From contig CAWDVP010000006.1 of assembly GCA_963805945.1 (NCBI GenBank), positions 192,001 through 256,000 of the forward strand: 64,000 nt of DNA, written 5' to 3'. This DNA is from Vulcanimicrobiota bacterium (GTDB lineage Bacteria; Vulcanimicrobiota; Vulcanimicrobiia; Eremiobacterales; Eremiobacteraceae). A program made the translations under genes and the position numbers. Below the pieces are notes generated by a model. It saw only the letters and a list, made by a program, of their open reading frames with translations, was not told the origin of the DNA and searched no databases. The first letter of the stretch is position 1; each line of letters opens with the position of its first letter. Below are positions 8,375-55,196 of this stretch, piece after piece.

Positions 8375-9973
8375 ATGGCTCTGCTCACCGGTGCTTCCCT
8401 GGGGCTCGAATCGTTCGGCGTCGGCCCTGTCGCGATCGCCCATCGCAACCTCTCCGTGCCGGCGTTGTTCGAGGCGGCGATCCGCCGTGACGAAGGCCTC
8501 GCCGCCGCTGCAGGCCCGCTGGCCGTCAAGACAGGCAAGCACACCGGCCGCTCCCCCCAGGACAAGTTCTTCGTCGAGGAGCCTGGCAGCCAGGGCCATA
8601 TCGACTGGGGCAAGACGAATAAGCCGTTCGACAAGGCCAAGTTCGAGGCGCTGCTCGCCCGGGTGGACGGCTACTTGCGCGACAAGGAGGTCTTCGTCAC
8701 CGACGCCTTCGCAGGCGCGGAACCGGCCTACCGTCTGCCCGTCCGCATCGTCACGACCAAGGCGTGGCACAGCCTCTTCGCCCGCCATCTCTTCATCGAC
8801 CCGACGCCGGCCGAACTCGCGACGTTCGCGCCGCAGTTCGCGGTCGTCGACGCTTGCGATTTCCTCGCGGTGCCCGAGCGCGACGGCACCCGCTCCGAGA
8901 CCTTCATCATCGTCGACTTCAGCCGCAAGCTCGTGCTCATCGGCGGCACGACGTATGCCGGCGAGATCAAGAAGTCGGTGTTCACCATCATGAACTACCT
9001 GCTGCCGCTGCGCGGCGTCATGCCGATGCACTGTTCGGCCAACGTCGGCGCGTCGGGCGACGTCGCCGTCTTCTTCGGCCTCTCCGGCACCGGCAAGACC
9101 ACGCTCTCAGCGGATCCGGATCGCGCCCTCGTCGGCGACGACGAGCATGGCTGGAGCGATTCTGGCGTGTTCAATTTCGAGGGCGGCTGCTACGCGAAGG
9201 TGATCAATCTCTCCGCCGAACTCGAGCCGCAGATCTTCCCCACGACGCGCACCTTCGCGACCGTGCTGGAAAACGTCGTCATCGACGAGCAGACGCGCGA
9301 GTTGGATCTCGCGGACGACTCGCTCACCGAGAACACGCGCGCCGCATACCCGCTCACCGCCGTGCCGAACATCGTGCCGTCGGGGCGCGCGGGTCACCCG
9401 AACCACATCGTCATGCTCACCTGCGACGCGTTCGGTGTCTTGCCGCCGATCTCGCGCCTCACCGTGCCGCAGGCGATGTACCACTTCCTCTCCGGCTACA
9501 CGGCCAAAGTCGCCGGCACGGAAAAAGGCGTCACCGAACCGCAGGCCACCTTCTCGCAGTGCTTCGGCGCGCCGTTCATGGTGCATCCGCCTATGGTGTA
9601 CGCCGGACTGCTCGGCGAGAAGATCGGCAAGCACAAAGTCGATTGCTGGCTGGTGAACACCGGTTGGAGCGGCGGCCCGTTCGGCGTCGGCAAGCGCATG
9701 AAGCTGCCGTACACCCGCGCCATAATCAAGGCAGCGCTCACGGGGCAGCTCGCCGACGTGCCGTGCATCGCGGATCCGATCTTCAACGTCGCCGTGCCCA
9801 CGAGCGTGCCCGGGGTTCCGGCAGAGGTGCTGCAGGCCCGCGCGACGTGGAGCGATCCCGCGGCGTACGATCGCAAGGCGAGGGAGCTCGCGCAGCTCTT
9901 CGCCGCGAATTTCGAGCGCTTCGCTTCGGCTGCGACGCCGGAGATCTTGGCGGCCGCGCCGCGAACGACTTGA
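8375..9973 (+). CDS. pckA: Phosphoenolpyruvate carboxykinase (ATP)
   Basis: TGRSPQDKF, YAGEIKKS, FFGLSGTGKTTLS, GDDEHGW, FNFEGGCYAK, TENTRAAYP. Confidence 0.99.
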   Translation: MALLTGASLGLESFGVGPVAIAHRNLSVPALFEAAIRRDEGLAAAAGPLAVKTGKHTGRSPQDKFFVEEPGSQGHIDWGKTNKPFDKAKFEALLARVDGYLRDKEVFVTDAFAGAEPAYRLPVRIVTTKAWHSLFARHLFIDPTPAELATFAPQFAVVDACDFLAVPERDGTRSETFIIVDFSRKLVLIGGTTYAGEIKKSVFTIMNYLLPLRGVMPMHCSANVGASGDVAVFFGLSGTGKTTLSADPDRALVGDDEHGWSDSGVFNFEGGCYAKVINLSAELEPQIFPTTRTFATVLENVVIDEQTRELDLADDSLTENTRAAYPLTAVPNIVPSGRAGHPNHIVMLTCDAFGVLPPISRLTVPQAMYHFLSGYTAKVAGTEKGVTEPQATFSQCFGAPFMVHPPMVYAGLLGEKIGKHKVDCWLVNTGWSGGPFGVGKRMKLPYTRAIIKAALTGQLADVPCIADPIFNVAVPTSVPGVPAEVLQARATWSDPAAYDRKARELAQLFAANFERFASAATPEILAAAPRTT

Positions 9974-10040
9974 TGTAGGGGCCGAGCTTCAGCTCGGCCC
10001 GCGGGAACGAAGGGTCGACCGAAAGGTCGACCCCTACATC
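9972..10040. repeat. REPIN-like inverted doublet of family A REPs between convergent genes; likely also a terminator
   Basis: GATGTAGGGGCCGAGCTTCAGCTCGGCCC ... GGGTCGACCGAAAGGTCGACCCCTACATC; 10-bp terminal inverted repeats. Confidence 0.85.
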
Positions 10041-10045
10041 GCCAT

Positions 10046-18403: not shown

Positions 18404-18429
18404 TGTGTTCCTTTACGTTCCGTGGTGGT

Positions 18430-18471
18430 GGGCCGATCTGAAGATCGGCCCCTACAAGGTCGGCCCCTACA
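18430..18471 (-). repeat. Family A REP plus a partial duplicate between rpsM and rpsK
   Basis: GGGCCGATCTGAAGATCGGCCCCTAC then AGGTCGGCCCCTACA. Confidence 0.85.
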
Positions 18472-23976: not shown

Positions 23977-24378
23977 TTACCACACGAACGCCATGACTTC
24001 GCCGCCGGTGCCCATCCGCTTGGCCTGCTTGCCGCTGATGATGCCCTTCGGCGTCGACAGGATGACCAGGCCCAAGCCGCCCATGCATTTGGGGATCTCG
24101 CCTTTGGGCGTGTAGATGCGCAGCCCCGGGCGGCTGATGCGCTTGAGGCCGTTGATCACGCGCTCTTTGCCCGTGCCGTACTTGAGCGTGAGCCGGATCG
24201 TGTCGCGCGGTTGCTGCGGCACGACGTCGTAGCTCTTGATGAAGCCCTCAGCCTTGAGCAGCTTCGCCAACTCGAGTTTCACGCGCGATGCCGGGATGTC
24301 GACGCGCTCCAGGAACGCGGTGTTCGCGTTGCGGATGCGCGTGAGCATATCGGCGACCGGATCGGTTATCGTTCCCAT
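23977..24378 (-). CDS. rpsH: 30S ribosomal protein S8
   Basis: [21 protein letters not shown]. Confidence 0.99.
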
Positions 24379-24399
24379 ATCCCTCTGTCAGTCCTCAAC

Positions 24400-24585
24400 T
24401 CACCAGGACGCCTTGACGACGCCCGGAACTTTGCCCGCGTGGGCCAACTCGCGGAAGCAGATGCGGCACAACGCGAACTTGCGCACGTAGCCCTTCGGGC
24501 GGCCGCAGCGCAGGCAGCGGTTGTGCTGGCGCACCTTGAACTTCGGCGTGCGCTTGCTCTTCTCGATCAGGCAGGTCTTGGCCAT
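24400..24585 (-). CDS. rpsN: 30S ribosomal protein S14, short Zn-binding (type Z) form
   Basis: 61 aa, RCLRCGRP...LCRICFRE...KASW. Confidence 0.98.
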
Positions 24586-25139
24586 CAGGCTGCCGCCCCT
24601 TCTTTGCGCAACGGCATCCCCATCTCGGTGAGGAACGCCAGTGCCTCTTCGTCGGTGCCGGCGGTCGTCACGATGACGATGTCCATGCCGCGCACGCGAT
24701 CGACCTTGTCGTAGTTGATCTCCGGGAACACGAGCTGCTCCTTGAGCCCGATCGCGTAGTTGCCGCGACCGTCGAGCGAATGCCGCGAAGTGCCGCGGAA
24801 ATCGCGGATGCGCGGCAGCACGATGTTGACGAGCTTGTCGAAGAACGCGTACATGCGCTCGCCGCGCAGCGTCACCTTCGCGCCGATCTGCATGCCCTCG
24901 CGCAGCTTGTAGACGGCGATGCTCTTCGTCGCGCGCGTCACCAGCGGCTTCTGCCCGGTGATCGCGGTGAGATCGGAGACCGCGCCGTCCATGGCCTTCG
25001 GCTCCGCCACGGCTTCGCCGACGCCCATGTTCACGACGATCTTCGTGAGGCGCGGGACCTGCATCGGATTCTTGTAGCCGAAACGCTTGGTGAGCGCCGG
25101 CATCACCGACTTCTCGTACTTCTCTCTCATTCGATTCAT
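24585..25139 (-). CDS. rplE: 50S ribosomal protein L5
   Basis: [30 protein letters not shown] at 25139. Confidence 0.98.
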
Positions 25140-25147
25140 ATGTCTGT

Positions 25148-25477
25148 CTACGCTTTCACCGGACGATCGGCGTGCTCGCCGCAGCGCCGGCACGTGCGCT
25201 CCTTGCCCTCGCCCTTGGCCACCCGCGCGAGCTTGCTCGGCTTCTGGCACTTCGGGCAGACGTACATGAGACGGCTCACGGGCATCGGCATCTCTTTTTC
25301 GATGATGCCGGCCTTGGCCTTAGGCGTCGCCTTCGAGTGGCGCTTCACGACGTTGACGCCCTCGACTTCGGCCACGCCGAGGTGACGGCGGATCAGCTTG
25401 ATCTTGCCGTGCTTGCCTTTGTATTTGCCGGACAGCACCAGCACGGTGTCGCCGGTCGCGAGTCTGGTCATGCCCAC
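25148..25477 (-). CDS. rplX: 50S ribosomal protein L24
   Basis: [25 protein letters not shown]-terminal CPKC...CRRC. Confidence 0.97.
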
Positions 25478-25478
25478 G

Positions 25479-25847
25479 CTAGAGCACCTCCGGTGCGAGC
25501 GAGATGATCTTCATGAAGTCGCGGTCGCGCAGCTCGCGGGCCACCGGCCCGAAGATGCGCGTGCCGCGCGGATTGTTCTGGTCGTTGAGCAGCACCGCCG
25601 CGTTCTCGTCGAAGCGGATGAACGAGCCGTCGGGGCGGCGCATCTTCTTCTTCTGACGGACGATGACGGCCGAGACGACGTTGCCCTTCTTCACCGCGGC
25701 GCCGGGGATGGCGGCCTTCACCGTCGCGACGACCACGTCGCCGACGTACGCGATCGGGTGGCGCGAGCCGCCCTTCACGTGGAACACCATGAGCTCGCGG
25801 GCGCCCGAGTTGTCGGCGACCTTGAGGCGTGTCTGCGCCTGGATCAT
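25479..25847 (-). CDS. rplN: 50S ribosomal protein L14
   Basis: [20 protein letters not shown]. Confidence 0.99.
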
Positions 25848-26131
25848 CGCGCCTTCTCCACTATCTCGAGCAGCCGCCAGCGCTTGCGCGCCGACAGCGG
25901 CCGCGTCTCGACGATGCGCACGAGATCGCCGGTCTTGGCCTCGTTGTTCTCGTCATGCGCCATGAAGCGTTCGGTGCGCTGGACGATCTTGCCATAGCGC
26001 GCGTCCGCCGACTGCGTCTCCGTGCGGACCACGATGCTCTTCTGCATCTTGTCCGACACGACGCGGCCGATCCGGACCTTGCGCCTGTTGCGCGCGTCGA
26101 TGGCGGTCTGTGTCGCTGCGTTATCCATCAT
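25844..26131 (-). CDS. rpsQ: 30S ribosomal protein S17
   Basis: [25 protein letters not shown]. Confidence 0.98.
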
Positions 26132-26334
26132 CAACCCGCCAACCGCCGCTGCGCCAGGACGGTGTAGAGCTGCGCGATCTCGCGCCGCAATTTGCTCACC
26201 GTGGCATGGTCTTCCAGATGCCCGGTGACGAGCTGGAACCGTAGATTGAACATCTCTTCCTTCGTCGCGGCGAGCTTCTCTTCGATCTCCCGCGTGGTCA
26301 GTTCGCGCACGCCGCGCAGTTCGCTAGGCTTCAA
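26131..26334 (-). CDS. rpmC: 50S ribosomal protein L29
   Basis: [12 protein letters not shown]...RREIA; probable TTG start at 26334. Confidence 0.95.
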
Positions 26335-26755
26335 CGGAGTCACCCACCCCTTCACGACGCACGAGCTTCGTGGCGATCGGCAGCTTGGAGGCGGCCAGCT
26401 TGAGCGCTTCTTTGGCCACCGCCAGCTCGACGCCGGCGAGCTCGAACATGATGCGGCCCGGACGCACGACCGCGACCCAACCCTCGGGCGCGCCCTTGCC
26501 GGAGCCTTGGCGCGTCTCCGCCGGCTTCTTCGTATACGACTTGTCGGGGAACAGCGTGATCCACACCTTGCCGCCGCGTTTCATGTGGCGGGTGAGCGCG
26601 ATGCGTGCCGCCTCGATCTGCCGATTCGTGATCCACGCCGGCTCGAGCGCCTGCAAGCCGTATTCGCCGAAATGCAGCGAATTGCCGGATTGCGCGCGAC
26701 CCTTCATGCGGCCGCGCTGCATCTTGCGATACTTGACGCGTTTTGGCATCAACAT
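26324..26755 (-). CDS. rplP: 50S ribosomal protein L16
   Basis: [19 protein letters not shown]. Confidence 0.99.
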
Positions 26756-26758
26756 CGG

Positions 26759-27628
26759 TTATGCTCCCTCCGCCGCGGGCGCTTCTGCCGCCGCGACTGC
26801 AGCCTCTGGGGCGGTCGGATTTATCCGACCGTCCGCCGCGTCGGCTGGCACCGCTTCCGGTCGAGCAAGCTCGACCGCTCCATCAGCCGCGGGAACCCCC
26901 GCTGCGGCGGGCACCGATCCTGGCACGCCAGGAGCGGCCTTCGTCGGACGCGGACGGCGCTCGCGCGCCGGACGCGCTTCGCCCTCTTGGCGCGGCCGCG
27001 CGTCCGGCAGCACTTCGCCGAGGTAGATCCAGACCTTCACGCCGATGCGGCCGTACGTGGTGTACGCCTCGACCGCCGCGTAGTCGATGTTGGCGCGCAG
27101 CGTGTGCAGCGGCACCTTGCCGTCATGGTTGCGTTCCACGCGCGCGATCTCGGCGCCGCCGAGCCGGCCGGAGCACTGCACCTTGATGCCGCGTGCGCCT
27201 GCCTTCATGGTGCGCTGGATCGCCTGGCGCATGGCGCGCCGGAAGGCGATGCGCTTCTCGAGCTGATCGATGATGTTGTTGGCCACGAGCTTCGCGTCGA
27301 GCTCCGGGTACTTGATCTCGACCACGTTGACGTTGACCGCCTTGCCGACGACGCGCTCCAGCTTACGGCGCAGCTCTTCGATGCCCGCACCGCGCTTGCC
27401 GATGATGATGCCGGGCTTGGCCGTGTTGATCACGACGCGCACCTGGTTCGCGCGGCGCTCGATGATGACGCGCGACACGCCCGCGGAGCGCGACAATTCG
27501 TCGATCACCTGGCGGATCTTCAGATCCTCGTGCAGCCGGTACTTGTACTGCTTGCCTTCGAACCACAGCGAGTCCCATGTCCGGACGATGCCGAGGCGGA
27601 AGCCGATCGGGTTGACCTTCTGGCCCAT
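26759..27628 (-). CDS. rpsC: 30S ribosomal protein S3 with long C-terminal tail containing two REP-derived segments
   Basis: [32 protein letters not shown]. Confidence 0.99.
26807..26882. repeat. Inverted pair of family B REPs inside rpsC
   Basis: TGGGGCGGTCGGATTTATCCGACCG (26807) and CGGTCGAGCAAGCTCGACCGCTCCA (26858-26882). Confidence 0.85.
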
Positions 27629-27629
27629 G

Positions 27630-27971
27630 TTAGCTTCCTTCTCCGTCCGAAACGGTGATGGTCACGTGCGATACTCTCTTTCTCTTCAGCCCGGCCGAAC
27701 CGCGCGCGCGCGCCTCGACCCGCTTCATCACCGGGCCGACGTCGACGATCGCCTTGCTCACGACGAGCTCTTCGGATTTCATGCCGTGGTTGTTCTCCGC
27801 GTTGGCGGCGGCCGAGCGCAGCAGCTTGTGCAGCGCCTTGCTCGCCTCCAAGGTCGAGAACGACAGCTCGACGAGCGCGCGATCGACGCGCTTGCCGCGG
27901 ATCACGTCGATCACGCGGCGCGCCTTGCGCGGCGTCACCTTAAGGAACTTCGCGGTCGCGTGCGCCTGCAT
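27630..27971 (-). CDS. rplV: 50S ribosomal protein L22
   Basis: [27 protein letters not shown]. Confidence 0.98.
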
Positions 27972-28306
27972 CACTTCACCACCGCGGCCGCTGCCGTCGG
28001 ACCCGCCGCCGGGCCAGCCGCTGCCGCCGCTGCCGCGGCCTTTTCGCCGCTGCTGCCGTGGCCGCGGAAGATGCGCGTCGGCGCGAATTCGCCGAGCTTG
28101 TGGCCGACCATGTTCTCTTGGACGTACACGGGCACGTGCTTGCGCCCGTCGTGCACGGCGATCGTGTGACCCACCATGCTCGGCGAGATGGTCGAGGCGC
28201 GCGACCAGGTCTTGATGACCTTCTTCTCGCGCGTCGAGTTCATCTTCTCGATCTTCGCGAGCAGATGATCGGCGATGAACGGACCCTTCTTGGATGAACG
28301 GCTCAT
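27971..28306 (-). CDS. rpsS: 30S ribosomal protein S19 with Ala-rich tail
   Basis: [23 protein letters not shown]. Confidence 0.98.
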
Positions 28307-29130
28307 TTTTTGCTCCGGCGCTTCACGATGAACTTGTTGGTGCGCTTGTTGCGGCGCGTCTTCTTGCCCATGGTCATGACGCCCCACGGCGTCGTGGGCG
28401 GACGGCCCGCCGTCGAGCGCGCCTCGCCGCCGCCGTGCGGATGGTCGACCGGGTTCATCGCGATGCCGCGCACCTGCGGACGGCGTCCGAGCCAGCGCGT
28501 GCGGCCGGCCTTGCCGATGACCTGGTTCTCGTGCTCGATGTTGCCGAGCTGGCCGATGGTGGCGCGGCACAGGATCGCGATCTTGCGGACCTCGCCGGAC
28601 GGCATGCGGATCTGCGCGTAATCGCCTTCCTTGGCCATGAGCTGCGCGGCGCCGCCGGCGCTGCGCACCAGCTTGCCGCCGCCGGCCGGCGTCATCTCGA
28701 TATTGTGGATGATCGTGCCGAACGGGATGCTCGACAGCGGCAGCGCGTTGCCGGTCTTGATGTCGGCATCCGCGCCCGACACGACGCTGTCGCCCACCCC
28801 TAGGCCGAGCGGCGCCAAGATGTAGCGCTTCTCGCCGTCGCGATAGTGCAGCAGCGCGATGCGCGCCGAGCGGTTCGGATCGTACTCGATCGCCGCGACC
28901 TTGGCCGGCACGCCGTCTTTGCGGCGCGCGAAGTCGATCGTGCGGTACATCTTCTTGTGCCCGCCGCCGCGATGGCGCACGGTGATGTGACCGTTGAAGT
29001 TGCGGCCCGCCTGGCGCTTCTTCGGTTCGAGCAGCGCGTTCTCGGGCTTCTTCTTCGTGATGTCGTCGAACGACGTGATCGTCATGAAGCGGCGCCCGGG
29101 CGAGGTCGGCTTGAATTTCTTTATCGCCAT
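28303..29130 (-). CDS. rplB: 50S ribosomal protein L2
   Basis: [20 protein letters not shown]. Confidence 0.99.
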
Positions 29131-29131
29131 A

Positions 29132-29446
29132 TCAAGACTCGAAGTAGTTCACGCCGCCGAGTTCGATCTTGTCGCCTTCTTTGAGCGTCACGATCGCCTT
29201 CTTCCAGGCGTTCTGCAGCACGACCGGGCGGCGCGTCGGACGGCGCATGTTGCGCCCCGTCTTGCACTGCACGGTCACCGTGTTCACGCGCAGCACCTTC
29301 ACCTTGAACATCTTCTCGACGGCCGCTTTCACGTGATGTTTGGTGGCGCGATGGTCGACTTCAAACGCGTATTGGGAACGCGCGGTGCCGGCCACCGACT
29401 TCTCGGTGACGATCGGCCGCCGCACGACGCGACGCAGTTCAGGCAC
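29132..29446 (-). CDS. rplW: 50S ribosomal protein L23
   Basis: [15 protein letters not shown]. Confidence 0.97.
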
Positions 29447-30083
29447 CGCACACCTCCGCCAGCGCCTCGTAGGCGTTCTTCGTGAAGATGACGCGGTCGT
29501 TGCCGAGCAGCGAGTGCGGGTTCACCTCGCCATGCCCGACGATCGTCGCGTAGCGCAGGTTGCGCCCCGCCTGCTCGATCGCCGCCGCGTTCTCGTCGTT
29601 GTCGCGATGCAGCACCAAGAGCACGCGTTCGGTCCGCTTGTCGCCCCACAGCACGCCGAGCAGATCCTTCGTCTTGACCGGCGCCAGTCCGGACGCGTCG
29701 ATCACGGACAGCTGTCCGTCGCCCGTCTTCGCCGCGATCGCCATCGCCAGAGCCGCGCGCCGCGCGCTCTTGTTCATGCCGATGTTGTACGAGCGCGGGT
29801 GCGGGCCGAACACGACGCCGCCCTTGCGCCACAACGGCGAGCGGATGCTGCCCGCGCGGGCGCGCCCGGTGCCCTTCTGCCGCCACGGCTTGCGTCCGCC
29901 GCCCGCCACTTCGGCGCGCGTCTTCGTGTCGGCGCTGCCGGAGCGTCGATTCGCCAGGTGCCGCATCACGGCGAAATGGATCACCGACTCCTTCGGCTCG
30001 CGCGCGAACGCCGCCGGCACGTCGACCGTGCCGACCGCTTTGCCCGACTTGTCGAGCAGAGGGACGTGTGGAGCGTTCGTCAT
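29439..30083 (-). CDS. rplD: 50S ribosomal protein L4
   Basis: [22 protein letters not shown] at 30083. Confidence 0.98.
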
Positions 30084-30709
30084 TTCGTCTTCGCCTTCAC
30101 CGATGTCCGCACCACGACCACGCCGTTGCGCGGCCCGGGCACGCTGCCTTTGAGCAGCAGCAGATTGCGCTCGGCATCGGCGCGCACGACCTCGATGTTG
30201 AGCGAGGTGACCCGCTCCACGCCCATGCGGCCCGGCCGGTGGCTGCCCTTGACGGTCTTGGCCGCGTTGGTGTCGCCGTTGGAGCCGGGCTGGCGATGGA
30301 TCATCGAGCCGTGGCTCGCGCCGCCGCCCACGCCGTTCCAACGCTTGATGATGCCCGCGAAGCCGCTGCCCTTGCTCGTGCCGATGACGTCGACTTTGTC
30401 GCCGACCGCGAACTCGCTGACGGTGACCGTGTCGCCCGCCTTGGCGTCCGCGATATCGGTGCGGAACTCGCGCAGGTGCGTCTTCGGCGCCGTGTTGAGC
30501 TTCTCAAAACGGCCCTTCATGGCTTTGCTGAGCTGCTTGTGCTTGGCGTCTTCGAAGCCGAGCACGACCGCCTCATAGCCGTCACGCTCGCGCTCTTTGC
30601 GCTCGACCACGGGGCACGGGCCGGCCTCGATCACGGTCACGGGGACGTAATCCCCGTTCTCCGTGAAGACGTTGGCCATGCCCAGCTTGCGGCCGATGAT
30701 GTTCTTCAT
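30080..30709 (-). CDS. rplC: 50S ribosomal protein L3
   Basis: [23 protein letters not shown]. Confidence 0.98.
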
Positions 30710-30714
30710 TGTCC

Positions 30715-31023
30715 TCAGGCCTTCAGTTCGATGTCCACGCCCGCCGGAAGATCGAGGTGCATCAGAGCGTCCATCGTCTTGGCGGATGCTTGGAGTATGT
30801 CGATCAAGCGCTTGTGGGTGCGGATCTCGAAGTGCTCGCGGCTCTTCTTATCCACGTGCGGCGAGCGCAGCACGCACCAGCGCCGGATCTCGGTCGGCAG
30901 CGGCACCGGGCCGCTGATGAACGCACCGGTCCGCTTCGCGGTCTCCGCAATCCGCTCGGCCGACTGGTCGAGGATCTTGTGGTCGTACGCGCGCAGGCGG
31001 ATGCGGATCTTCTGACGTGCCAT
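30715..31023 (-). CDS. rpsJ: 30S ribosomal protein S10
   Basis: [25 protein letters not shown]. Confidence 0.99.
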
Positions 31024-31025
31024 GT

Positions 31026-32220
<1,195 letters not shown>

Positions 32221-32235
32221 TGCTTTACTCCGTCT

Positions 32236-34336
32236 CTAACTCGCGGCAGCTTTGCCGGTGTTCTTAGCGACGATCTCTTCTTCGATCGATTTCGGGACCT
32301 GGGCGTAGTGCGCGAACTCCATCGTATAGGTCGCGCGGCCTTGCGTGCGGCTGCGCAGATCGGTCGCGTAGCCGAACATCTCCGCCAGCGGCACGAACGC
32401 GGTGATCTTCTGCGCGCCGCCGGCTCCGGCTTCCTGATGCTGCACCTTGCCGCGGCGCGCCGAGATATCGCCGATGACGTCGCCCATGTGCTGGTCCGGC
32501 GTCACGACTTCGACCGCCATGACCGGCTCTTTGATGATCGGGCCTGCCGCGCGATTGCCTTCCTTGAACGCCATCGAGCCGGCGATCTTGAACGCCATCT
32601 CGTTCGAGTCGACGTCGTGGTACGAGCCGTCGAACACGGTGGCCTTGAAGTCGAGCACCGGGTAGCCGGCGAGCACGCCCGCTTGCGCCGATTCGCGGAT
32701 GCCTTGCTCGATCGGTTTGATGAACTCTTTGGGGATCGAGCCGCCGACGATCTCGTTCTCGAACTGGACGCCGGAGCCCGGCGGCAGCGGTTCGAGGCGG
32801 ATCCAGCAGTCGCCGTACTGGCCTTTGCCGCCGGTCTGGCGGATGTAGCGGCCTTCCTTCTCGACGTGCGCGTGATGGTCTCTTTGTACGCGACCTGCGG
32901 CTTGCCGACATTCGCCACGACCTTAAACTCGCGGCGCAGCCGGTCGACGATGATGTCGAGGTGCAGCTCGCCCATGCCGGAGATGATCGTCTGGCCGGTC
33001 TCTTCGTCGGTCCGCATCTTGAAGGTGGGATCTTCTTCGGCCAGAGCTTGACGAGCGACTGGCCGAGCTTCTCCTGGTCGGCCTTCGTCTTCGGCTCGAT
33101 CGCTTGGCTGATGACCGGCTCCGGGAAGGTGATGTTCTCGAGCACGATCGGGTGCTTCTCATCGCACAGCGTGTCGCCGGTGCGTCGTGTTCTTCAGGCC
33201 CACCGCCGCGGCGATGTCGCCCGCCTCGACGCTGTCGACGTCTTCGCGATGGTTGGCGTGCATGCGCAGGATGCGGCCGATGCGCTCCTTGTTGCCCTTG
33301 TTCGAGTTGTAGACGTACGAGCCGGCTTTGAGCGTGCCCGAGTACGTCCGGAAGAAGGTGAGCTTGCCGACGAACGGGTCGGTCATGATCTTGAAGGCGA
33401 GCGCGGAGAAGTGCTCGTCGTCGCTGGGCTTGCGTTCGATGATCTTGTCCGGATGGTCGGGATCGAAGCCGGTGACGGCCTCGAGGTCGAGCGGCGAGGG
33501 CAGGTAGTCGACGATGGCGTCCAGCAGCGGCTGCACGCCCTTGTTCTTGAAGGCCGAACCGCACAGCACGGGGATCGCGATGCCCTTGATGGTGGCGGCG
33601 CGCAGCGCGTTGCGCAGCTCGTCGGCCGTGATCTCCTTGCCCTCGAGGTACTTGTGGGTGAGATGGTCGTCGGTCTCGGCGACCGCCTCGATCAGCTCGG
33701 AGCGGTATTGGTGGATCTGGTCTTTCATCTCGGGCGGCGCGTCCACTTCGGACATCGCCTTGCCGAGGTCATCGGTGTAGATCGGTCGCCTTCTCGGTGA
33801 GCAGGTCGACGAAGCCTTTGAACAGGTCCTCTTGCCCGATAGGCAGCTGGACGGGTAGCGCGCGCGCGCCGAGCCGTTCGCGGATCTTGTCGACCGCGTT
33901 ATAGAAGTCGGCGCCGGTGCGGTCCATCTTATTGATGAAGATGAGACGCGGCACTTTGTATTTGTTCGCCTGGCGCCAGACGGTCTCGCGTCTGCGGCTG
34001 CACCGCGGCGACCGCGTCGAACAGCGCGACGAGGCCGTCGAGCACCCGCATGGAGCGCTCGACCTCGACCGTAAAGTCCACGTGGCCGGGCGTATCAATA
34101 ATGTTGATGCGCGCGTCGCGCCAGGTGCACGTCGTCGCGGCGGACGTGATCGTGATGCCGCGCTCCTGCTCTTGCTCCATCCAGTCCATCGTCGCCGCGC
34201 CTTCGTGCACTTCGCCCATCTTGTGGGTGCGGCCGGTATAGAAAAGGATGCGCTCCGTCGTCGTCGTCTTGCCGGCGTCGATGTGGGCTGCGATGCCGAT
34301 GTTGCGCGTGTTCGCGAGCGTGTATTGTCTGGCCAT
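32236..34336 (-). CDS. fusA: Elongation factor G; about five apparent frameshifts (likely sequence error)
   Basis: [54 protein letters not shown] spread across successive frames. Confidence 0.97.
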
Positions 34337-34343
34337 CGGAGCA

Positions 34344-34814
34344 TTACCAGCGGTAATGGGCGAACGCTTTGTTCGCCTCGGCCATGCGGTGCGTGTCCTC
34401 GCGCTTCTTGATCGCCTGGCCTTGGTTGCCTGCGGCGTCCATGATCTCGGCGGCGAGCTTGTCCGCCATCGTGCGGCCTGGGCGCGAACGCGAATATTGG
34501 ATGAGCCAGCGCATGCCCATCGCCTGGCGGCGATCCGGGCGGACCTCCATCGGCACCTGATAGGTCGCACCGCCGACGCGCCGCGGCCGCACTTCGATGA
34601 GCGGCATCACGTTGTTGAGCGCCTGGGTGAAGACTTCCATCGGGTCCTTGCTGGTCTTGCTGCCGACGATGTCGAGCGCTCCATAGACGATGCCTTCCGC
34701 GGTGGCTTTCTTTCCGCAGAGCATGATCTTGTTGATGAAGCGCGCCATGGTCCGCGAGTTGAAGCGCGGGTCGGGCAGCACTTGGCGCTTGGGCGCCGGT
34801 CCTTTACGCGGCAT
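34344..34814 (-). CDS. rpsG: 30S ribosomal protein S7
   Basis: [24 protein letters not shown]. Confidence 0.99.
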
Positions 34815-34827
34815 ATCTTCCTTTAGA

Positions 34828-35265
34828 TCACTTCGGGCGCTTCGCGCCGTACTTCGAACGAGATTGCTTCCGGTTCTGCACGCCTTGCGTGTCGAGCGTG
34901 CCGCGGATGATGTGGTAGCGGATGCCCGGCAGATCTTTCACCTTGCCGCCGCGCACGAGCACCACCGAATGCTCCTGCAGATTGTGGCCGATGCCGGGGA
35001 TGTAGGCCGTCACTTCGATGCCGTTGGTGAGCCGCACGCGCGCGACTTTGCGCAGCGCTGAGTTCGGCTTCTTCGGCGTGATCGTCTTGACTTGGGTGCA
35101 GACCCCACGGCGCTGGGGGTTGCCCTTCTTTATATGCGTGGATCGCTGCGGCAGGTCGGGGTGGCCGGGCTTGGCGCCGGTCTGCGACACCAGGAACGCC
35201 GGCGACTTCGACTTCTTCTTGACCTTTTCGCGACCGCTGCGGACCAACTGGCTGATTGTCGGCAA
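34828..35265 (-). CDS. rpsL: 30S ribosomal protein S12 with a long N-proximal insertion
   Basis: TTG start (M)[24 protein letters not shown]. Confidence 0.98.
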
Positions 35266-35467
35266 GACGACCCTCATCTGACAGAAAGCAAAAAGACAAC
35301 GTGCGCGCCGCGCAGCTGTCTCTCCCTGGGGTGTCCCGCCTAGGATCCTAAGGTGTGTCGATCGGTGGGGAGCAAACCTCCGGGGATTTTCCACCGGCAG
35401 CCGCCTGGGCGGCTGGGCCGGTCGGAATAGTACGGGCGCCTATGAGGGACACCCGCCCAACCAACGT

Positions 35468-35496
35468 ATTTTACCAAACGGTACGCCCCCGGTCAA
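35468..35496 (-). promoter_or_regulatory. Sigma70-type promoter of the rpsL (str) operon
   Basis: TTGACC-17 bp-TAAAAT with extended TG. Confidence 0.75.
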
Positions 35497-35600
35497 GCCA
35501 GACCGGCCGGATTGGTCTAGAACCCAGTTGCCGATAGTATCCGCATGGGCTGCCATGCCCGTCCCGGAGCCTATTCCCCCTTGCCGTTCAGGAGAATCCG

Positions 35601-36568
35601 ATGAAACGTCTCACCCTTCTGGCGCTCGCGTTGCTGGCCGTTGGCTGCAGCGCCAGCAACACCTCAAGCCCGGCGACCCCGACGCCCAGCAGATCTACGC
35701 GGGCAACGTGGGCAACAATTCGATCTCCGTCTTCGCCGCCGGCTCGAACGGCAACGTCGCGCCGACGTCGACCATCACCGGCGCTGCGACGCTCATCAAC
35801 CAGCCGTATTACCTGTGGGTCGACTCGAGTGGAAAGATCTGGTCGTCGAACTGGACCGGCGGCGCAGCTGGGTCGGTGACCGCGTACAGCGCGGGATCCA
35901 CCGGCAACGCCGCGCCCGTCGTGGACCTCACCGGCGCCGCGACCAACCTCGTCGGGCCATGCGGCATCTACGTCGACTCGACCGGCAAACTCTATGTCGC
36001 CAATTGCAGCAACGCCAGCGTCGCGGTGTTCGCTCCGGGAGCCACCGGTAACGTCGCGCCCGTTCAGTTCATCCAAGGCGCGACGTCGAACTTGAGCTTC
36101 CCTGAAGGCCTCGCCGTGGACACCGCCGGCAACATCTGGGTGGGCGATTGCGGGGCGGCCGGTCATGAGGCCATCTATAAGTGGCCCAATAACGCCACCG
36201 GCAACGTGGCGCCGTCCACGACGATCACGTACGCGCCGATGACGTGCGTCGACGGCGTCGCGGTCGATGGCGCCGGCCGGGTCTACGCCGCGCAGGAGTC
36301 GGGCGGCGCACCGGGCGCCGACGCGATCTATGTCTTCGCCAGCGGCGCGAGCGGCCTGACCACCCCCGTCCAGATCATCCAGGGCGTCAACACGAAGCTC
36401 AACGTCCCCTACAGCGTGCAACTCGACAACGCAGGCAACATCTGGGTGGGCAACGCCGACAACGTCGAGATGTTCCCGGGCAACGCGACGGGCAACGTGG
36501 CGCCGACCGTGTTCATCCAGGGCGCGAACACGTTGGTCAATGAGCCGTGGGGCGTGGCGCTGCACTAA
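35601..36568 (+). CDS. Lipoprotein with NHL/SMP-30-like six-blade beta-propeller; apparent frameshift near 35690
   Basis: AGGAG RBS, MKRLTLLALALLAVGC lipobox in one frame; six (G/N)xxGNVAP...I.G repeats in the other. Confidence 0.75.
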
Positions 36569-36578
36569 AGACAACGGC

Positions 36579-36632
36579 CGGTCGAGAAAACTCGACCGCT
36601 CCACACACAAGGGCCGGCACATGCCGGCCCTT
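36579..36632. repeat. Family B REP plus a second hairpin between convergent genes
   Basis: CGGTCGAGAAAACTCGACCGCTCCAC; AAGGGCCGGCACATGCCGGCCCTT. Confidence 0.75.
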
Positions 36633-36641
36633 CTTTCCACC

Positions 36642-37311
36642 CTACGTCGCCACCGCCAGCATACCGATCAAGTCCGCCAGCGCTTTGATGATCACGTCCG
36701 GCGCGACGAGCTTGCGTCGGATACGGCTTGTCCTCGAGGTCCGCCCAGCACGCCACCATGCCGGCGGCTTTCGCGCCCACGACGTCGGTCGCCGGCTCGT
36801 CGCCGACGTACATCGTAGTCTCGATCTTCATCCCCAATCGCGCGGCTGCCACCTCGAATGCACGCGGGTCCGGCTTGAAGAACCCGATCTCTTCGGACAC
36901 CACGACCGAGCCGGTGAAGCCGATGAGATCCGCCTTGAGGTACTGCAGTTCGGTCCAGCCGTTGGTGAGGATGCCGACCGGCACGTCGCGCTCGCGCAGC
37001 TCGCGCAGCATCGCCTCTGCGCCTTTCATCGGCGTGACGCGCCGCGGCGCTTCTTGCAGCGCTGCAAGACGGAAGGTGGCCGGGATCTCGCCGAGCTTCG
37101 ACTCAGGACAGCCCCAGGCGCGGAACGATTCGATGAGCGCGTCGTTCAGCCGGACTTCGCCGGAGCGGAACAGCGCGAGCGCCGTGGCGATCGCGGCCGC
37201 CGAGGGCGGCGTCGGGCACGTCTCTTTCGCGAGCTCCGTGAGCACGTCAAGTTCGAGATGGCGGTCGAAGCCCAGCGTGTGGTCGAAATCGAACATGACG
37301 GCCGAGATCAT
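36642..37311 (-). CDS. HAD-IA family hydrolase; apparent frameshift near 36715
   Basis: FDFDHTL, ILTNG, KPDPRAF, YVGDEPATDVVGAKAAGM; the other frame gives APDVIIKALADL...TAG at 36642. Confidence 0.85.
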
Positions 37312-37369
37312 GGCCTCGGCTTACGAGAAGGCCGCGGCGCGACCTTCAAGCCGCGCTTCACGGAAGACA

Positions 37370-37399
37370 TAGGGGCCGATCTAAAGATCGGCCCCTACA
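37370..37399. repeat. Family A REP downstream of rpoC (possible terminator)
   Basis: TAGGGGCCGATCTAAAGATCGGCCCCTACA. Confidence 0.85.
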
Positions 37400-37429
37400 T
37401 CAGGCCGCGTCGAGTTAGCGAGCCGTCGG

Positions 37430-41490
<4,061 letters not shown>

Positions 41491-41506
41491 ATACACCGTC
41501 TAAAGT

Positions 41507-45354
<3,848 letters not shown>

Positions 45355-45394
45355 CAGTTGTGGCTTACACCTTTAGCGCTGCGCGACCTAATAC

Positions 45395-45457
45395 GGAGCG
45401 GTCGATGGCGCTCGACCGTTTTTCTTGTTCTGTAGGGGTCGATCTTCAGATCGACCC
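45395..45457 (+). repeat. One family B and one family A REP in the rpoB leader
   Basis: GGAGCGGTCGATGGCGCTCGACCG (45395-45418) and GTAGGGGTCGATCTTCAGATCGACCC (45432-45457). Confidence 0.8.
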
Positions 45458-45588
45458 GCGCGTGTGGTCGTGGTTCCTCGGGGATTAAAAAGACGACTTG
45501 CTCCGGCCACCGGTGGTCTGCTTCGCGAGGCTGCTTCTCGCTTGGTCCAACCGGTCGGCGCAATCGTCCCAATGTGACACAGACATGT

Positions 45589-50118: not shown

Positions 50119-51381
50119 TTAGGGGGTGCGCGGTGGCACTCCTTCACGCGGCTCGCGCACGAATGTGAGCGCGAGTCCGCCCAGCACCATCCATACCGCG
50201 ACGAGCCCGAAGAGCGAGCGATAGCCGATGCCGAGATCGCCGGTGACGGCGCCCAAGTGGTCCACCAGCAGGCCGCCGATGATGGGCGCGGCGACCTGCG
50301 GCGCCGACGCGCCGATGTTCCACAGCGCCATGAGCGCGCCCGCGCGGCCCGGCGGCAAGAGATTGCACGCCAGCGCCCAGTCCACCGAATAGTACGCGCC
50401 CCAGCCGATCCCGAGGAACACCGACAGCACCGCGACCGGCGTCAGCGAGGTGGCGAACGCGACCGTGAGCGCGGCCGCGACGATCAGCGCGAGCGATATA
50501 TAGATGATGGATTTCTTCGATATCCGGTCGCCGAGCAAGCCCGCCGGCACGGTGCCGACGAGCGAGCATCCGACCATGAGCAGCAGCAGCGTGAGGCTGG
50601 TGGCCTGATAGCGATCGATCTTGAGGGCGAAGCGCAGATAAAAACCGAGGAACGGCAGGATCGAATACAGGCCCGCGCTCACCAGGGTGCGCGAACCGAT
50701 GAGCCACCAGAAGCTCGCGCGCAGCGGCCAGGCGGTCAGCACGGGCACGGCCTCGGGCACATCTTCCCTGCGCTCTTTGACGCCGAACACGGTGACCAGC
50801 AGCGCGGCGAGCATGATCACCGCGATCGCCGTGACGAGCCGCAAGAACCCGCTCGTGTACATCTCGGGCGTGACGTCCGGACCCGGCTGGTGGACGACGA
50901 GCTTCGCGAGCAGCAGGCCTCCCGCGGTGCCCGCCAAGCGCATCAGACCCATCACCGCGGAGGCGCTGCCCTGCGCGCTCTTGGCGACGCGGTCCGGGAT
51001 GAGCGCTTGGTACGCGCCACCGGCGATGTTGAGCAGCTGCAGCACGACGAAGGCGACCAGCACCGCCAAGAACGACGGCGCGAGCGCGAACATGTAGAGG
51101 CCGGCGAAGTTGATGAGCGTGCCGACGATGATGAACGGCATGCGCCGGCGCACGATGTCCGACCAGCGGCCGGCGCCGTACTGGATGACGATCGCGATGA
51201 GCGCCCCGCAGCCGAGCAGAATCGCCGACGCGCGGCCGTAGAACGTCGGCGGCACGAAGCGGGCGATCTCCGCTTGCAGCGCTGCGCCGAGCAGCGCGGC
51301 CCATTGCAGCTCCCAGGCGAACCAGTAGAACGACAGCGCGAACGGGTTCGGCGTCTTGACGCCTGGAGCGGTCGAATTCAT
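50119..51381 (-). CDS. MFS transporter
   Basis: About 12 TM segments, GRWSDIVRRRMPF, GLLGDRISKK. Confidence 0.9.
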   Translation of the reverse strand: MNSTAPGVKTPNPFALSFYWFAWELQWAALLGAALQAEIARFVPPTFYGRASAILLGCGALIAIVIQYGAGRWSDIVRRRMPFIIVGTLINFAGLYMFALAPSFLAVLVAFVVLQLLNIAGGAYQALIPDRVAKSAQGSASAVMGLMRLAGTAGGLLLAKLVVHQPGPDVTPEMYTSGFLRLVTAIAVIMLAALLVTVFGVKERREDVPEAVPVLTAWPLRASFWWLIGSRTLVSAGLYSILPFLGFYLRFALKIDRYQATSLTLLLLMVGCSLVGTVPAGLLGDRISKKSIIYISLALIVAAALTVAFATSLTPVAVLSVFLGIGWGAYYSVDWALACNLLPPGRAGALMALWNIGASAPQVAAPIIGGLLVDHLGAVTGDLGIGYRSLFGLVAVWMVLGGLALTFVREPREGVPPRTP

Positions 51382-51388
51382 TCGACCG
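51364..51388 (+). repeat. Family B REP spanning a stop/start (ATGA) gene junction
   Basis: TGGAGCGGTCGAATTCATTCGACCG. Confidence 0.85.
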
Positions 51389-52130
51389 TCACCTGCGCCG
51401 CGTGCACCCGCGCGTATTCGAAGTCCGCCGCCTCATCGCAATCCATCGCGAGCGCCGGATCCGCACCGCGCAGCGCGACGAGCGAGCCGCGCGTGAGCCG
51501 CTCGATGCGCGCCTTGACGTCGGCGACGCCTGCCTTGTTCGCCGCATAGCGCAGCGCGAGCTGCGGCCCGAGCAGGCTCGCCATCGCGACCAGGCTCTTG
51601 CGCGCCCCGAACGCCTTGCGGACGAGCTGCTCGTTGCGCAGGAATGCGCCCGCGTTGACGACGAGCGCGCTGCCGCCGGTCCACTGGCCGTCGCTCAGCC
51701 GTGCGAAACTGCTGCGCGCGCCCGGATACGCGGCCTCGAACTCCTCGCGCGTGAAGATCGGATAGACGCAGTCCGCGCTCGGCGGACTCGCCGCGAGCAG
51801 CCCGGCGATGCTCGCGCTGCGCACGAAGGGCATGTCCGACGCGCAGAAGACGACGCGTTCGTCGCCGGCATCGCGCAGCGCCGCGAGCACGTTCTCCTCG
51901 CCGCTGGCCTGTTCGTCGATCCAGCGATCCGCCGCGGCGCCGCATGCCTGCGCGGTGCGCGGCCCGACCACCGTCACGCGACCGATCTCCGGCACGCCGC
52001 GCAACGCCTCGATGACGATCGCCAGCAGGCTGCGGCCGCCGATGCGCACCAATGCTTTGATGTCGCTGCCATAGCGCTGCGCGTCCTCGGGCCCGAGCCG
52101 GCCTGCTGCGGTGATGACTGCGTTGAGCAC
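51378..52130 (-). CDS. Nucleotidyltransferase (MobA/NTP-transferase-like)
   Basis: AVITAAG...KALVRIGG, ASDMPF, MDCDE. Confidence 0.8.
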   Translation of the reverse strand: MLNAVITAAGRLGPEDAQRYGSDIKALVRIGGRSLLAIVIEALRGVPEIGRVTVVGPRTAQACGAAADRWIDEQASGEENVLAALRDAGDERVVFCASDMPFVRSASIAGLLAASPPSADCVYPIFTREEFEAAYPGARSSFARLSDGQWTGGSALVVNAGAFLRNEQLVRKAFGARKSLVAMASLLGPQLALRYAANKAGVADVKARIERLTRGSLVALRGADPALAMDCDEAADFEYARVHAAQVTVE

Positions 52131-52181
52131 GCCCGCCCCGTTGGCGCATGCGCGGCCGAATCCATTCGAGCCCGCGTGCTC

Positions 52182-52207
52182 GTGGAGCGGTCGAATTTAT
52201 TCGACCG
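52182..52207 (+). repeat. Family B REP containing the methyltransferase stop codon
   Basis: GTGGAGCGGTCGAATTTATTCGACCG. Confidence 0.85.
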
Positions 52208-53417
52208 ACGTTCGGGCAGCCTTGCACAGGATCGCCATCTTCTTCTCGCCGACGGTCGTGCACACCAACACCGCCGACGCCTCGCCGCGCGGTTTGAGCA
52301 GCGCCTCGATCGCCTCGGGCAGCAGCGGGAAGGCGCGCGTCTTGATGACGAGCGAGCCGATATCGCGTGCGCGCAGCAGCGCGCGCACCTTCTTCTCGTT
52401 GAACGGCATGGCCGCGAGCACTTCGTACCAGCGGAAGAACGGCGTCGCCGCGGCGCGCGAGGCGGTGACGTACGCGACGTTCGGATCGAGCGCGGCGGCG
52501 CCGATCGGCTCGCAGGCGGCACCGAGCAGCCCTGAGCGGATGACAGCGGCGTCCGGCTCGCCCAGCCAACCTTGGAGAAGACGCACCTCCGGCGCGCTCG
52601 CGGGATCGCCATCTAAAGGATGGACTCCGTCGGCCGCGATGACCGTCGCCCGGCGCGCGCCATGGCGGCGGGCGAGGTCGCCGCACCACGCGATCGCCTC
52701 TTTGCACACACCGCGCTCCGAGATGTACTCGAGCTCCACCGGGAAGCCGCACGCGTCGCGCAGCGCGTCCTCGGTGACGCGCAGCCCGGGCGCGATCTTC
52801 ACACCGAGCGCCGCCGCGCGCAGATCGCCGATGCGCGCGAGGATGCTGCGCAGCGGCGGGCTGTATTCCGCACCGGTCTTGGCCCGGCCGCTCGGCGTCC
52901 GCCGCGAGGGGTCCGCAAAAGCGGCGTCCATGTCCTGAAGCGGCCAGCGCAGCGCGTCGCCGATGCTGAACGCCGCTGACGGCTTCACGCCGTACACGAT
53001 CGCGTTGTGACGCGCGCAGACGAGCGCATCGGTGTCGACATCGACGCCCGAGACGGTGCCGCCCGGCGGCCGAACGCCGGCGATGGCGATGGAGTCTGAG
53101 CCGATGCCGCAGCACAGATCTGCCACCCGTTTGAAACGCGCGAAGCGCTCGGCCGTGTGGCGCGAGATCGCCTCTGACGACGCCTGCTCGTAGCCGGCGC
53201 GCGTGAAGAACATCTCGGCGGCGCGGCTGAACTTGCGCGACGCGAGCGCCCTGCGCCGCGCGAAGGCGGTCGACAGCGCTGCCGCCGCGAGCTCGGGGTC
53301 GGCCATGCGGCGGGCGAGCGCGGCGGCGGCGGGCACCTGCACTTCGGTGAACGGCGCGAGCGCGGCGAGCAGCCGTGCGCCGTCCGCGGATTCAAGCCGG
53401 TCGTACGCGTTGGTCAC
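52197..53417 (-). CDS. Class I SAM-dependent methyltransferase with THUMP-like C-terminus
   Basis: EQASS, VADLCCGIGSD, FADPSRR, EPDAAVIRSG. Confidence 0.85.
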   Translation of the reverse strand: MTNAYDRLESADGARLLAALAPFTEVQVPAAAALARRMADPELAAAALSTAFARRRALASRKFSRAAEMFFTRAGYEQASSEAISRHTAERFARFKRVADLCCGIGSDSIAIAGVRPPGGTVSGVDVDTDALVCARHNAIVYGVKPSAAFSIGDALRWPLQDMDAAFADPSRRTPSGRAKTGAEYSPPLRSILARIGDLRAAALGVKIAPGLRVTEDALRDACGFPVELEYISERGVCKEAIAWCGDLARRHGARRATVIAADGVHPLDGDPASAPEVRLLQGWLGEPDAAVIRSGLLGAACEPIGAAALDPNVAYVTASRAAATPFFRWYEVLAAMPFNEKKVRALLRARDIGSLVIKTRAFPLLPEAIEALLKPRGEASAVLVCTTVGEKKMAILCKAARTSVE

Positions 53418-54374: not shown

Positions 54375-55196
54375 CCACTCCAGACCGTCGACCACGCGCG
54401 GCCCGTTGCGCTCTAGGATGGAATCGTTGGGCGGGCGCAGCACCTTGCCGTCGCGCACGGCGCGCAGACTGCGCCACGGTTCGCTCGCCCGCACCGCTGG
54501 GCCGAAGTGCGTGTCATCCGAGACGATGAGGACGTCGGGATCCGCTTTCAGGATCGCCTCCGCCGTGAGGCTCGGGTACGCCTCATCGACGTCCCCGGCG
54601 ACGTTGATGCCGCCCGCGAGGCTGATGAGATCGTTGAGATAGGAGCGACCGCCGGCGGTGAATCCTGGCAACCCCAACAGATAGAGCACCGTCGGCTTGT
54701 GCCGCCGATCCTTGGTCTGTGCGGCGACGCGTTCGATGCGACGCCGTAATGCCGCTGCCAAGACCACGCCCTTCTTGATGCTCCCGCAGGCCTTGGCGAC
54801 GCCCGCGATGTCCGCGTAGAGGTCGCCGATATTCCGGTTCGGCAGATACACGACCGGCACGCGCAGCCGTAGTGCGACAGCGGACCCTTCATTCTCTTGA
54901 TCGTGCAAGGCGACGACGACGGTGGGCCGCAGCTGCGCGATCCGCTCTAGGTCCACATGCGCGAGATCGCCGACGTGCGGCAGCGCTTTGGCGGGCGCGG
55001 GATAGTCGTCGTAGGTCGTGTCGGCGACGAGATGGCGGCCGCAGTCGACGGCATACGCGATCTCGGTGAGCGACGGCGCCAGCGAGATGACTCTGATCTT
55101 ACCCGCTTGGTCTGTAGCGGTCGAATTTATTCGACCGTGAGATGCGCACCCGCCAACGAGCGCGCACGCAGCCGCGGCGATGAGGAAGCGTCTCAA
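54354..55196 (-). CDS. btuF: Cobalamin ABC transporter substrate-binding lipoprotein
   Basis: Lipobox LVGGC, RVISLAPSLTEI, LAGGINV, RNGPRVVDG; downstream of a B12 riboswitch. Confidence 0.88.
   Translation of the reverse strand: MRRFLIAAAACALVGGCASHGRINSTATDQAGKIRVISLAPSLTEIAYAVDCGRHLVADTTYDDYPAPAKALPHVGDLAHVDLERIAQLRPTVVVALHDQENEGSAVALRLRVPVVYLPNRNIGDLYADIAGVAKACGSIKKGVVLAAALRRRIERVAAQTKDRRHKPTVLYLLGLPGFTAGGRSYLNDLISLAGGINVAGDVDEAYPSLTAEAILKADPDVLIVSDDTHFGPAVRASEPWRSLRAVRDGKVLRPPNDSILERNGPRVVDGLEWLAGALR
55113..55137 (+). repeat. Family B REP in frame inside btuF
   Basis: TGTAGCGGTCGAATTTATTCGACCG encodes GRINSTA directly after the lipobox. Confidence 0.85.

Follow-up and report, generated by a model that had tools for sequence, protein, structure and literature searches.

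In-frame REP palindromes of opposite orientation in the C-terminal tail of an Eremiobacterota ribosomal protein S3

REPs are short tagged palindromes whose mobility is attributed to RAYT tyrosine transposases. In the parts of the survey by Di Nocera (2013, BMC Genomics 14:522, PMC3733652) drawn on here, REPs with GTAG/CGTC tags are described as mostly extragenic and close to the 3' ends of ORFs, and their commonest form is a dimer with the tags outside and a spacer of 20-100 bp. Intragenic, in-frame copies are reported there for several species; over half of them occur in dimers or groups that encode 20-30 aa, and the authors suggest that inserts of this kind may be neutral where they fall in termini or flexible linkers. 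The RPEs of Rickettsia (Ogata 2000, as summarised in PMC3184786, PMC10969869 and PMC3733652) are selfish palindromes that lie in frame in many unrelated, apparently functional genes and are absent from the orthologues. In a search of the literature on palindromic repeats in Eremiobacterota, none of the listed titles and abstracts dealt with such repeats. Here, we describe two REPs within the frame of rpsC, the gene for ribosomal protein S3, in a 64-kb stretch of Eremiobacterota DNA that was analysed as a whole and is referred to as the window. The stretch is assigned to the Eremiobacterota (WPS-2) by the names of its S3 homologues and of related loci.

In the window, rpsC is part of the S10/spc ribosomal-protein cluster, with rplV upstream and rplP downstream (Pfam). 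The features at its 3' end are the following:

26759-27628, minus strand: rpsC (ribosomal protein S3), ORF of 289 aa with core residues 1-207 and tail residues 208-289
26762-27007, minus strand: C-terminal tail of S3, 82 aa, hypervariable and of low complexity, host to both REPs
26858-26882, minus strand: REP S3_a, tag TGGAGC at the mRNA-sense 5' end, frame F2, (D)GAVELARP
26832-26857, minus strand: spacer between the two REPs, 26 nt, coding for (P)EAVPADAA
26807-26831, plus strand: REP S3_b, tag TGGGGC antisense to the mRNA, frame R2, (D)GRINPTAP
26753-26772, minus strand: rpsC-rplP junction, GGAGGGAGCA TAA CCG ATG, without intergenic room, as read directly

On the plus strand, S3_b has the sequence TGGGGCGGTCGGATTTATCCGACCG, which divides into TGGGGC-GGTCGGAT-TT-ATCCGACC-G. 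S3_a reads CGGTCGAGCAAGCTCGACCGCTCCA on the same strand, that is, C-GGTCGAGC-AA-GCTCGACC-GCTCCA, and is a reverse-oriented copy of the same kind of unit. The tags point outward, the two units are 26 nt apart, and their 25-nt arms are 72% complementary. The peptide DGAVELARP of S3_a occupies residues 249-257 (26858-26884, minus strand), and DGRINPTAP of S3_b occupies residues 266-274 (26807-26833, minus strand). Two hairpins with outward-pointing tags in the S3 tail had been proposed in a sequence-only reading of this DNA, and their coordinates, spacing and peptides all proved correct on recomputation. Only the rpsC frame is open through both REPs, the other two sense frames being stopped inside the REPs. 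The ORF continues for 289 codons up to a stop that adjoins rplP, with the core domains intact, so that the repeats are intragenic and in frame. The further claim that both orientations are read through in one protein agrees with this open frame, and the continuity of the ORF suggests that both peptides are indeed translated.

The part of S3 that hosts the repeats differs markedly from the rest of the protein. The Pfam domains KH_2 and Ribosomal_S3_C span residues 37-201, and in the 30 closest S3 homologues (276-306 aa) the core is near-invariant to about residue 207, followed by Ala/Pro/Glu-rich tails that cannot be aligned. All Eremiobacterota relatives have such a long Ala/Pro/Glu-rich tail, which extends to the rplP start; the S3 stop adjoins the rplP start in the window as well as in the two related loci L001 and L002. 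In the window, the tail consists of 32% A, 17% P, 11% R and 10% E. Its GC3 is 0.65 (26762-27007; 0.69 without the REP codons) compared to 0.94 in the core (27008-27628), and the codon usage of the tail therefore differs from that of the conserved part of rpsC. The low value fits a relaxed or young coding sequence. In an AlphaFold2 model built with 30 close sequences, no secondary structure was predicted for residues 201-289 (pLDDT 36-46); as the mean pLDDT was 50.5 and part of the folded core also stayed below 50, this model supports disorder of the tail weakly.

Of these otherwise unalignable tails, nothing but the extreme C-terminus, ..EG[ATK], is conserved. This may be because the Shine-Dalgarno sequence of rplP overlaps the last S3 codons, within which it likely lies, judging from the letters (GAG GGA GCA TAA; ..EGA*). 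Since the tail runs to the ribosome-binding site of rplP, it is the only unconstrained DNA behind rpsC. Other repeats occur in these tails as well. P0066 and P0072, two further S3 proteins, carry tandem SAPASALPVVE repeats, and the S3 tail of Eremiobacterota seems generally prone to the gain of repeats. In the window, the end of rpsC (26763-26795) recurs as a 33-nt direct repeat of 73% identity in the stretch just before REP S3_a (26877-26909), possibly as the trace of a duplicated gene end or as a chance match between runs of Ala codons.

Both S3 hairpins belong to a REP family, here called family B, whose consensus is approximately TGGAGC-GGTCGAAT-TT-ATTCGACC-G (in full TGGAGCGGTCGAATTTATTCGACCG). 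The unit is a short stem-loop palindrome of 25 nt with a 9-bp stem and a 2-nt loop. The window holds 10 strong copies of it, dispersed over its 64 kb, in addition to decayed ones, and their alignment has 14 invariant columns. The motif CGGTCG-N(4-14)-CGACCG matched 11 times where 0.95 matches were expected, a number that none of 100 shuffles reached. We also built a covariance model from all 10 copies, the two S3 copies included, and searched it within the 64-kb window. The family scored 36.4-46.4 bits, with S3_a at 42.7 and S3_b at 42.6; as training copies match the model by construction, the informative figure is the gap to the best match that was neither a training copy nor its opposite-strand reading, which scored 20.2 bits. 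Chance palindromes in GC-rich low-complexity DNA were considered as an origin of the hairpins and were ruled out by the motif statistics together with the covariance-model scores. Thus, the view that the S3 hairpins are two members of a dispersed REP family, set in opposite orientation within the open rpsC frame, was borne out.

The tag of the unit reads GGAG in eight of the ten copies, GTAG in one (55110-55140) and GGGG in one (S3_b). Four strong copies are located inside the rpsC and rpoC tails, three overlap ORF ends and three appear intergenic. Among the latter, the copy at 55110 falls within the opening ~29 codons of the longest ORF, and is intergenic only if the start of that ORF was called too far upstream. 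The remaining copies outside the two tails are:

36576-36606: overlaps the end of a HAD-hydrolase ORF and is read through as WSGRVFST
45391: looks intergenic
51361-51391, plus strand: its loop ATGA (51378-51381) combines the TGA that ends an upstream NTP-transferase gene with the ATG of the longest ORF for an MFS transporter
52180-52210, plus strand: its loop TAA (52197) ends a THUMP-like methyltransferase gene (..TSVE*)
61384: looks intergenic

The consensus is open in five reading frames out of six, the remaining one giving V-E-stop. Its copies are read in three or more frames, in addition to the one that supplies a stop. A search with Pfam among the 63 ORFs of the window revealed no RAYT or tyrosine-transposase domain. 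Beyond its Pfam domain, the HAD-hydrolase ORF (36565-37311, minus strand) continues for 59 aa, a stretch that takes in an 11-bp GC hairpin (36609-36632) and the REP; an inserted repeat or a frameshift may account for this extended end.

A further, related REP family, TGTAGGGG[TC]CGAnCTTnAGnTCG[AG]CCC, has the stem GGG[TC]CGA... and carries a GTAG tag in all six of its window copies. These are found at the following positions:

9971-10041: dimer with the tags outside, between convergent genes
18427-18459: copy
37370-37402: copy directly behind the rpoC stop
41462-41494: copy
45428-45460: copy forming a mixed pair with a family-B copy (45391-45460)

How the S3 copies came to be where they are may be judged from related proteins. 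The closest S3, P0002 (277 aa), is 12 aa shorter than that of the window and identical to it over residues 1-217. P0002 lacks exactly 10 codons (30 nt, 26804-26833) which contain S3_b, plus two codons elsewhere. At the site of S3_a it has AGAVSTAEP, equal in length to DGAVELARP and differing in four of nine residues. Its tail reads AAE--PVL-AGAVSTAEP-APVVADTA-(gap)-AAPAAVDAPAAEGA, with APVVADTA at the position of the spacer. GAVSTAEP in P0002 was considered as a possible collapsed hairpin. An in-frame indel of roughly 75 bp had been expected in the rpsC tails of close relatives; the comparison with P0002, at the protein level, yields an in-frame indel, but of 30 nt, its length being derived from a protein alignment in a low-complexity region. 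As only the S3_b block is missing from P0002, the pair was probably not gained as one unit. The sequence-only reading had spoken of a complete inverted REP pair, of which both hairpins are present, but their gain as one unit is improbable. The two proteins suggest that the copies probably arrived, or were lost, in two separate events rather than as one unit of 75 bp. With arms of 72% complementarity, two separate hairpins and a relative that lacks one of them, the pair is also not a REPIN in the sense of one long hairpin that moves as a unit.

The insert is lineage-specific. At the protein level it is absent from the orthologues, P0002 lacking the S3_b block and 117 of the 119 other S3 clusters having no REP-like peptide. 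A regular-expression search found such peptides in three of 120 S3 clusters, namely the window's own, P0025 and P0073. The S3 tail of P0025 contains DRINSTAT, which matches frame R2 of the consensus (GRINSTAP), and that of P0073 contains VEHSSTAT twice; from the protein sequences, both look like REPs translated in other frames. A looser STA[PT] pattern matched four more clusters and was regarded as non-specific. The sequence-only reading had named one observation that would speak against it, relatives with the same peptide and synonymous changes that break the hairpins. Among the S3 proteins compared, no relative has the same peptide, and this observation was therefore not made. A genome-contig scan gave two Eremiobacterota loci, of which L001 showed no hairpin of at least 8 bp in the S3 tail and L002 none in the rpsC tail, both loci (75% and 70% identity) being too distant to define the indel.

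S3 is not the only protein of the transcription and translation machinery affected. The window contains a second group of in-frame copies:

37538-37796, minus strand: REP cluster in the rpoC C-terminal tail, all copies head-to-tail in one orientation and in frame F2

Two intact copies (37664-37694 and 37619-37649) read GAVEFIRP. They are accompanied by at least three decayed copies, also in frame, whose readings include GPVELARP and RAIERARP. Covariance scores in this tail were 46.3, 41.5, 13.4 and 7.1 bits. The tail ORF ends at 37430 with ISELDA, to be compared with ..ELD[MAV], on which many of the 27 nearest Eremiobacterota RpoC homologues (P0122-P0148) end, the closest included. The tails of these 27 homologues are 57-165 aa long and hold no REP-like peptides. 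A search with the rpoC tail against 1.84 billion representatives gave a single match (E 1.5e-4), an unrelated repeat protein without REP-like peptides, and the sole match in a word-indexed search that covered proteins of 243-774 aa was the protein of the window itself.

The shared frame of all rpoC-tail copies raises the question of whether the peptide itself, G-A-V-E-[FL]-[IA]-R-P, has been selected in the tails of transcription and translation proteins, with the palindromy of the DNA being secondary. A single orientation and frame is not predicted by random insertion, and the F-to-L and I-to-A replacements are common to GAVELARP of S3 and GPVELARP of rpoC. However, S3_b is oppositely oriented and gives the unrelated peptide GRINPTAP, while other copies are intergenic, lie in other frames or supply stop codons. 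The peptides are also absent from the 27 nearest RpoC proteins and from 117 of the 119 other S3 clusters, and the searches with the rpoC tail led to one irrelevant protein among the 1.84 billion representatives and, in the word-indexed search, to the window's own. We therefore regard selection on the peptide as very unlikely.

The quality of the assembled sequence also has to be considered. rpoC (37913-41399) aligns to P0125 in frames -3, -1, -2, -3 and -1, plus one short segment in frame -3. tuf (31026-32235), fusA (32236-34094) and rpoB (41507-43820) likewise consist of overlapping or adjacent ORF pieces. These broken essential genes are most likely not pseudogenes but the result of indel errors in the assembly, and the many frameshifts in neighbouring genes mean that the sequence quality of the assembly is imperfect. 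The repeats could then have been placed in rpsC by misassembly or sequencing error, a possibility to which the splitting of rpoC into five or more frame segments in the alignment to its homologue and of tuf, fusA and rpoB lends some weight. In contrast to these genes, rpsC is intact, and its residues 1-217 are identical to those of P0002, an independent database protein that also agrees with the window on either side of the REP region and in the GAV of one copy. Moreover, both S3 copies differ in sequence from all others in the window, unlike what collapse or chimerism would give, and the S3 proteins of the window and of P0002 differ in net length by a multiple of three. An artefact is thus, in our view, very unlikely.

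We then consider the hairpins themselves. S3_b has arms of 12 nt that match at 92%, and S3_a arms of 9 nt that match at 100%. Folded as RNA, the two S3 hairpins reach -20.1 kcal/mol (z -3.0; equalled by one of 200 shuffles) and -14.9 kcal/mol (z -1.9; equalled by 11 of 200). The 91-nt region that contains both folds better than its shuffles (z -2.7 and -3.2), and its minimum-free-energy structure consists of two separate hairpins. No Rfam family reached its gathering score across 24000-39000. Over the 10 copies, 95.6% of the 90 stem pair cells are paired. Four of the 90 cells are changed on both sides relative to the in-window consensus, and three of these four belong to the S3 copies, in agreement with the compensatory stem changes that had been noted from the sequence. 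S3_a has two adjacent compensated pairs, by which the codons GAA TTT ATT CGA (EFIR) become GAG CTT GCT CGA (ELAR); S3_b has one, A-U to G-C, by which CGA..TCG (R..S) becomes CGG..CCG (R..P). All stem changes in S3 are AT-to-GC transitions. The S3 stems are perfect, and their cores, at -12.9 and -12.7 kcal/mol, are two of the three most stable among the ten copies, compared to -13.2 kcal/mol for the copy r36580 and -10.5 kcal/mol for the consensus copies.

Not all of these changes are private to S3. A decayed copy in the rpoC tail has the inner-stem, ELAR-type changes in common with one S3 copy, and r36580 shares an outer stem change with an S3 copy. Therefore, the S3 changes may be inherited variants of a subfamily or may have arisen convergently. 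The statement that each S3 copy carries its own compensatory changes accordingly stands as far as the changes are real, but they are perhaps not each copy's own, some being shared with the rpoC-tail copy and r36580. As a pattern, GC-enriching changes that preserve the stem fit both amelioration within the coding context and inheritance from a variant subfamily.

These data bear on the possibility that the hairpins are selected as nucleic-acid structures in the S10/spc transcript, where they would act as a barrier to 3'-5' decay, as a site of processing or by causing a pause that sets the output of S3 relative to L16, with the peptides as a by-product. The perfect S3 stems with two of the three most stable cores, the concentration of three of the four double-sided changes in S3 and the better-than-shuffled fold of the 91-nt region speak for such a structure. 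REPs near gene ends are furthermore reported, in the relevant parts of PMC3184786 and PMC3733652, to alter transcript stability. On the other hand, P0002 lacks one hairpin and has a different peptide at the site of the other, nothing comparable is found in 117 of the 119 other S3 clusters, and the region has no Rfam match. Ribosomes unwind hairpins in translated regions, and the ELAR-type inner stem also occurs in the decayed rpoC copy, so that it may be an inherited variant. In addition, stem-restoring changes in palindromes can be produced by templated repair without any selection. On balance, we consider a selected structure in the transcript unlikely.

A broader reading of the same observations is that, in this lineage, the disordered tails of the most highly expressed, tightly packed core genes (rpsC, rpoC) may act as refuges for REPs and that the S3 copies are actively maintained, either because the hairpins do work in the transcript or the DNA, where they may serve as a decay barrier, a pause, or a gyrase or transposase site, or because the peptides were co-opted on the surface of the ribosome near the mRNA entry site. 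That the S3 copies are not decaying speaks against neutrality and could indicate selection on structure. We nevertheless deem active maintenance improbable. Because the stems in S3 are perfectly paired and of raised stability, with the compensatory changes concentrated in them, and because the rpoC copies keep a single orientation and frame, we retain the structural-RNA and the peptide explanations at the low likelihoods given above.

Our findings are most readily explained if family B is selfish, genome-specific REP DNA that is tolerated, and read through, in the disordered tails of S3 and RpoC, an explanation that we hold to be likely. According to this model, REP copies, presumably mobilised by a RAYT, would have settled in the 3'-terminal extension of rpsC, which encodes a fast-evolving, low-complexity tail. 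With rplP following immediately, this tail would offer the only unconstrained DNA at the place where REPs normally settle, just behind the gene. Copies that land in an open frame and add a whole number of codons, such as the 10 of S3_b, would survive and be read as peptides. GAVELARP and GRINPTAP would then be neutral passengers in a disordered tail, leaving the S3 core untouched.

If selfish REP DNA is indeed tolerated in this way, even S3 and the RNA polymerase beta' subunit may carry translated selfish palindromes, as the open frames suggest, provided that these lie in disordered tails. The intact copies, the decayed copies and the relative that lacks one copy together form a natural series for the amelioration of REPs into coding sequence. 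There are also practical consequences, as REP-bearing tails inflate and diversify proteins that serve as phylogenomic markers, and gene callers can be misled where a stop or start codon comes from a REP loop. The host is an uncultured, soil-type bacterium, and the phenomenon of intragenic REPs is hereby extended to the uncultured phylum Eremiobacterota.

Compared with the systems described so far, the S3 pair shares features with several of them. In PMC3116915 (Bertels and Rainey 2011), as far as its relevant sections go, REPIN/RAYT systems likewise show two inverted REPs with a short spacer in a multicopy genomic setting; REPINs are, however, described there as extragenic, whereas the S3 pair is intragenic, forms two hairpins, has arms of 72% complementarity and is found in a window without a RAYT. 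The fusions of BRE, ERIC/YPAL and RUP elements treated in parts of PMC3184786 (Delihas 2011) resemble it in that small repeats extend or interrupt ORFs, 3'-terminal extensions included, but those elements are longer and MITE-like, have terminal inverted repeats and come from proteobacteria and firmicutes. With the RPEs, as characterised in the summaries cited above, the S3 REPs have in common that they are in-frame selfish palindromic repeats in protein genes and absent from orthologues. RPEs measure ~100-150 bp and keep one conserved peptide frame per family, whereas the S3 unit has 25 nt and is read in several frames, and, unlike in RPEs, the insertions seen in the window are confined to disordered C-terminal tails.

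The closest match is to the REP dimers in the portions of PMC3733652 used here. Like these, the S3 pair has its tags outside and a 26-nt spacer, encodes 25 aa from GAV to TAP, and, with its unlike stems, corresponds to a 'heterodimer'. It departs from them in that the family-B tag is mostly GGAG rather than GTAG, that the host belongs to the Eremiobacterota and that the genes are rpsC and rpoC; a search of the supplementary files of PMC3733652 found no 'RNA polymerase' entry and only two 'ribosomal' entries, an NRPS and RsmE. The in-frame REPs in the S3 tail are thus a clear case of selfish DNA in an essential gene, but one that is precedented by the published intragenic REP dimers.
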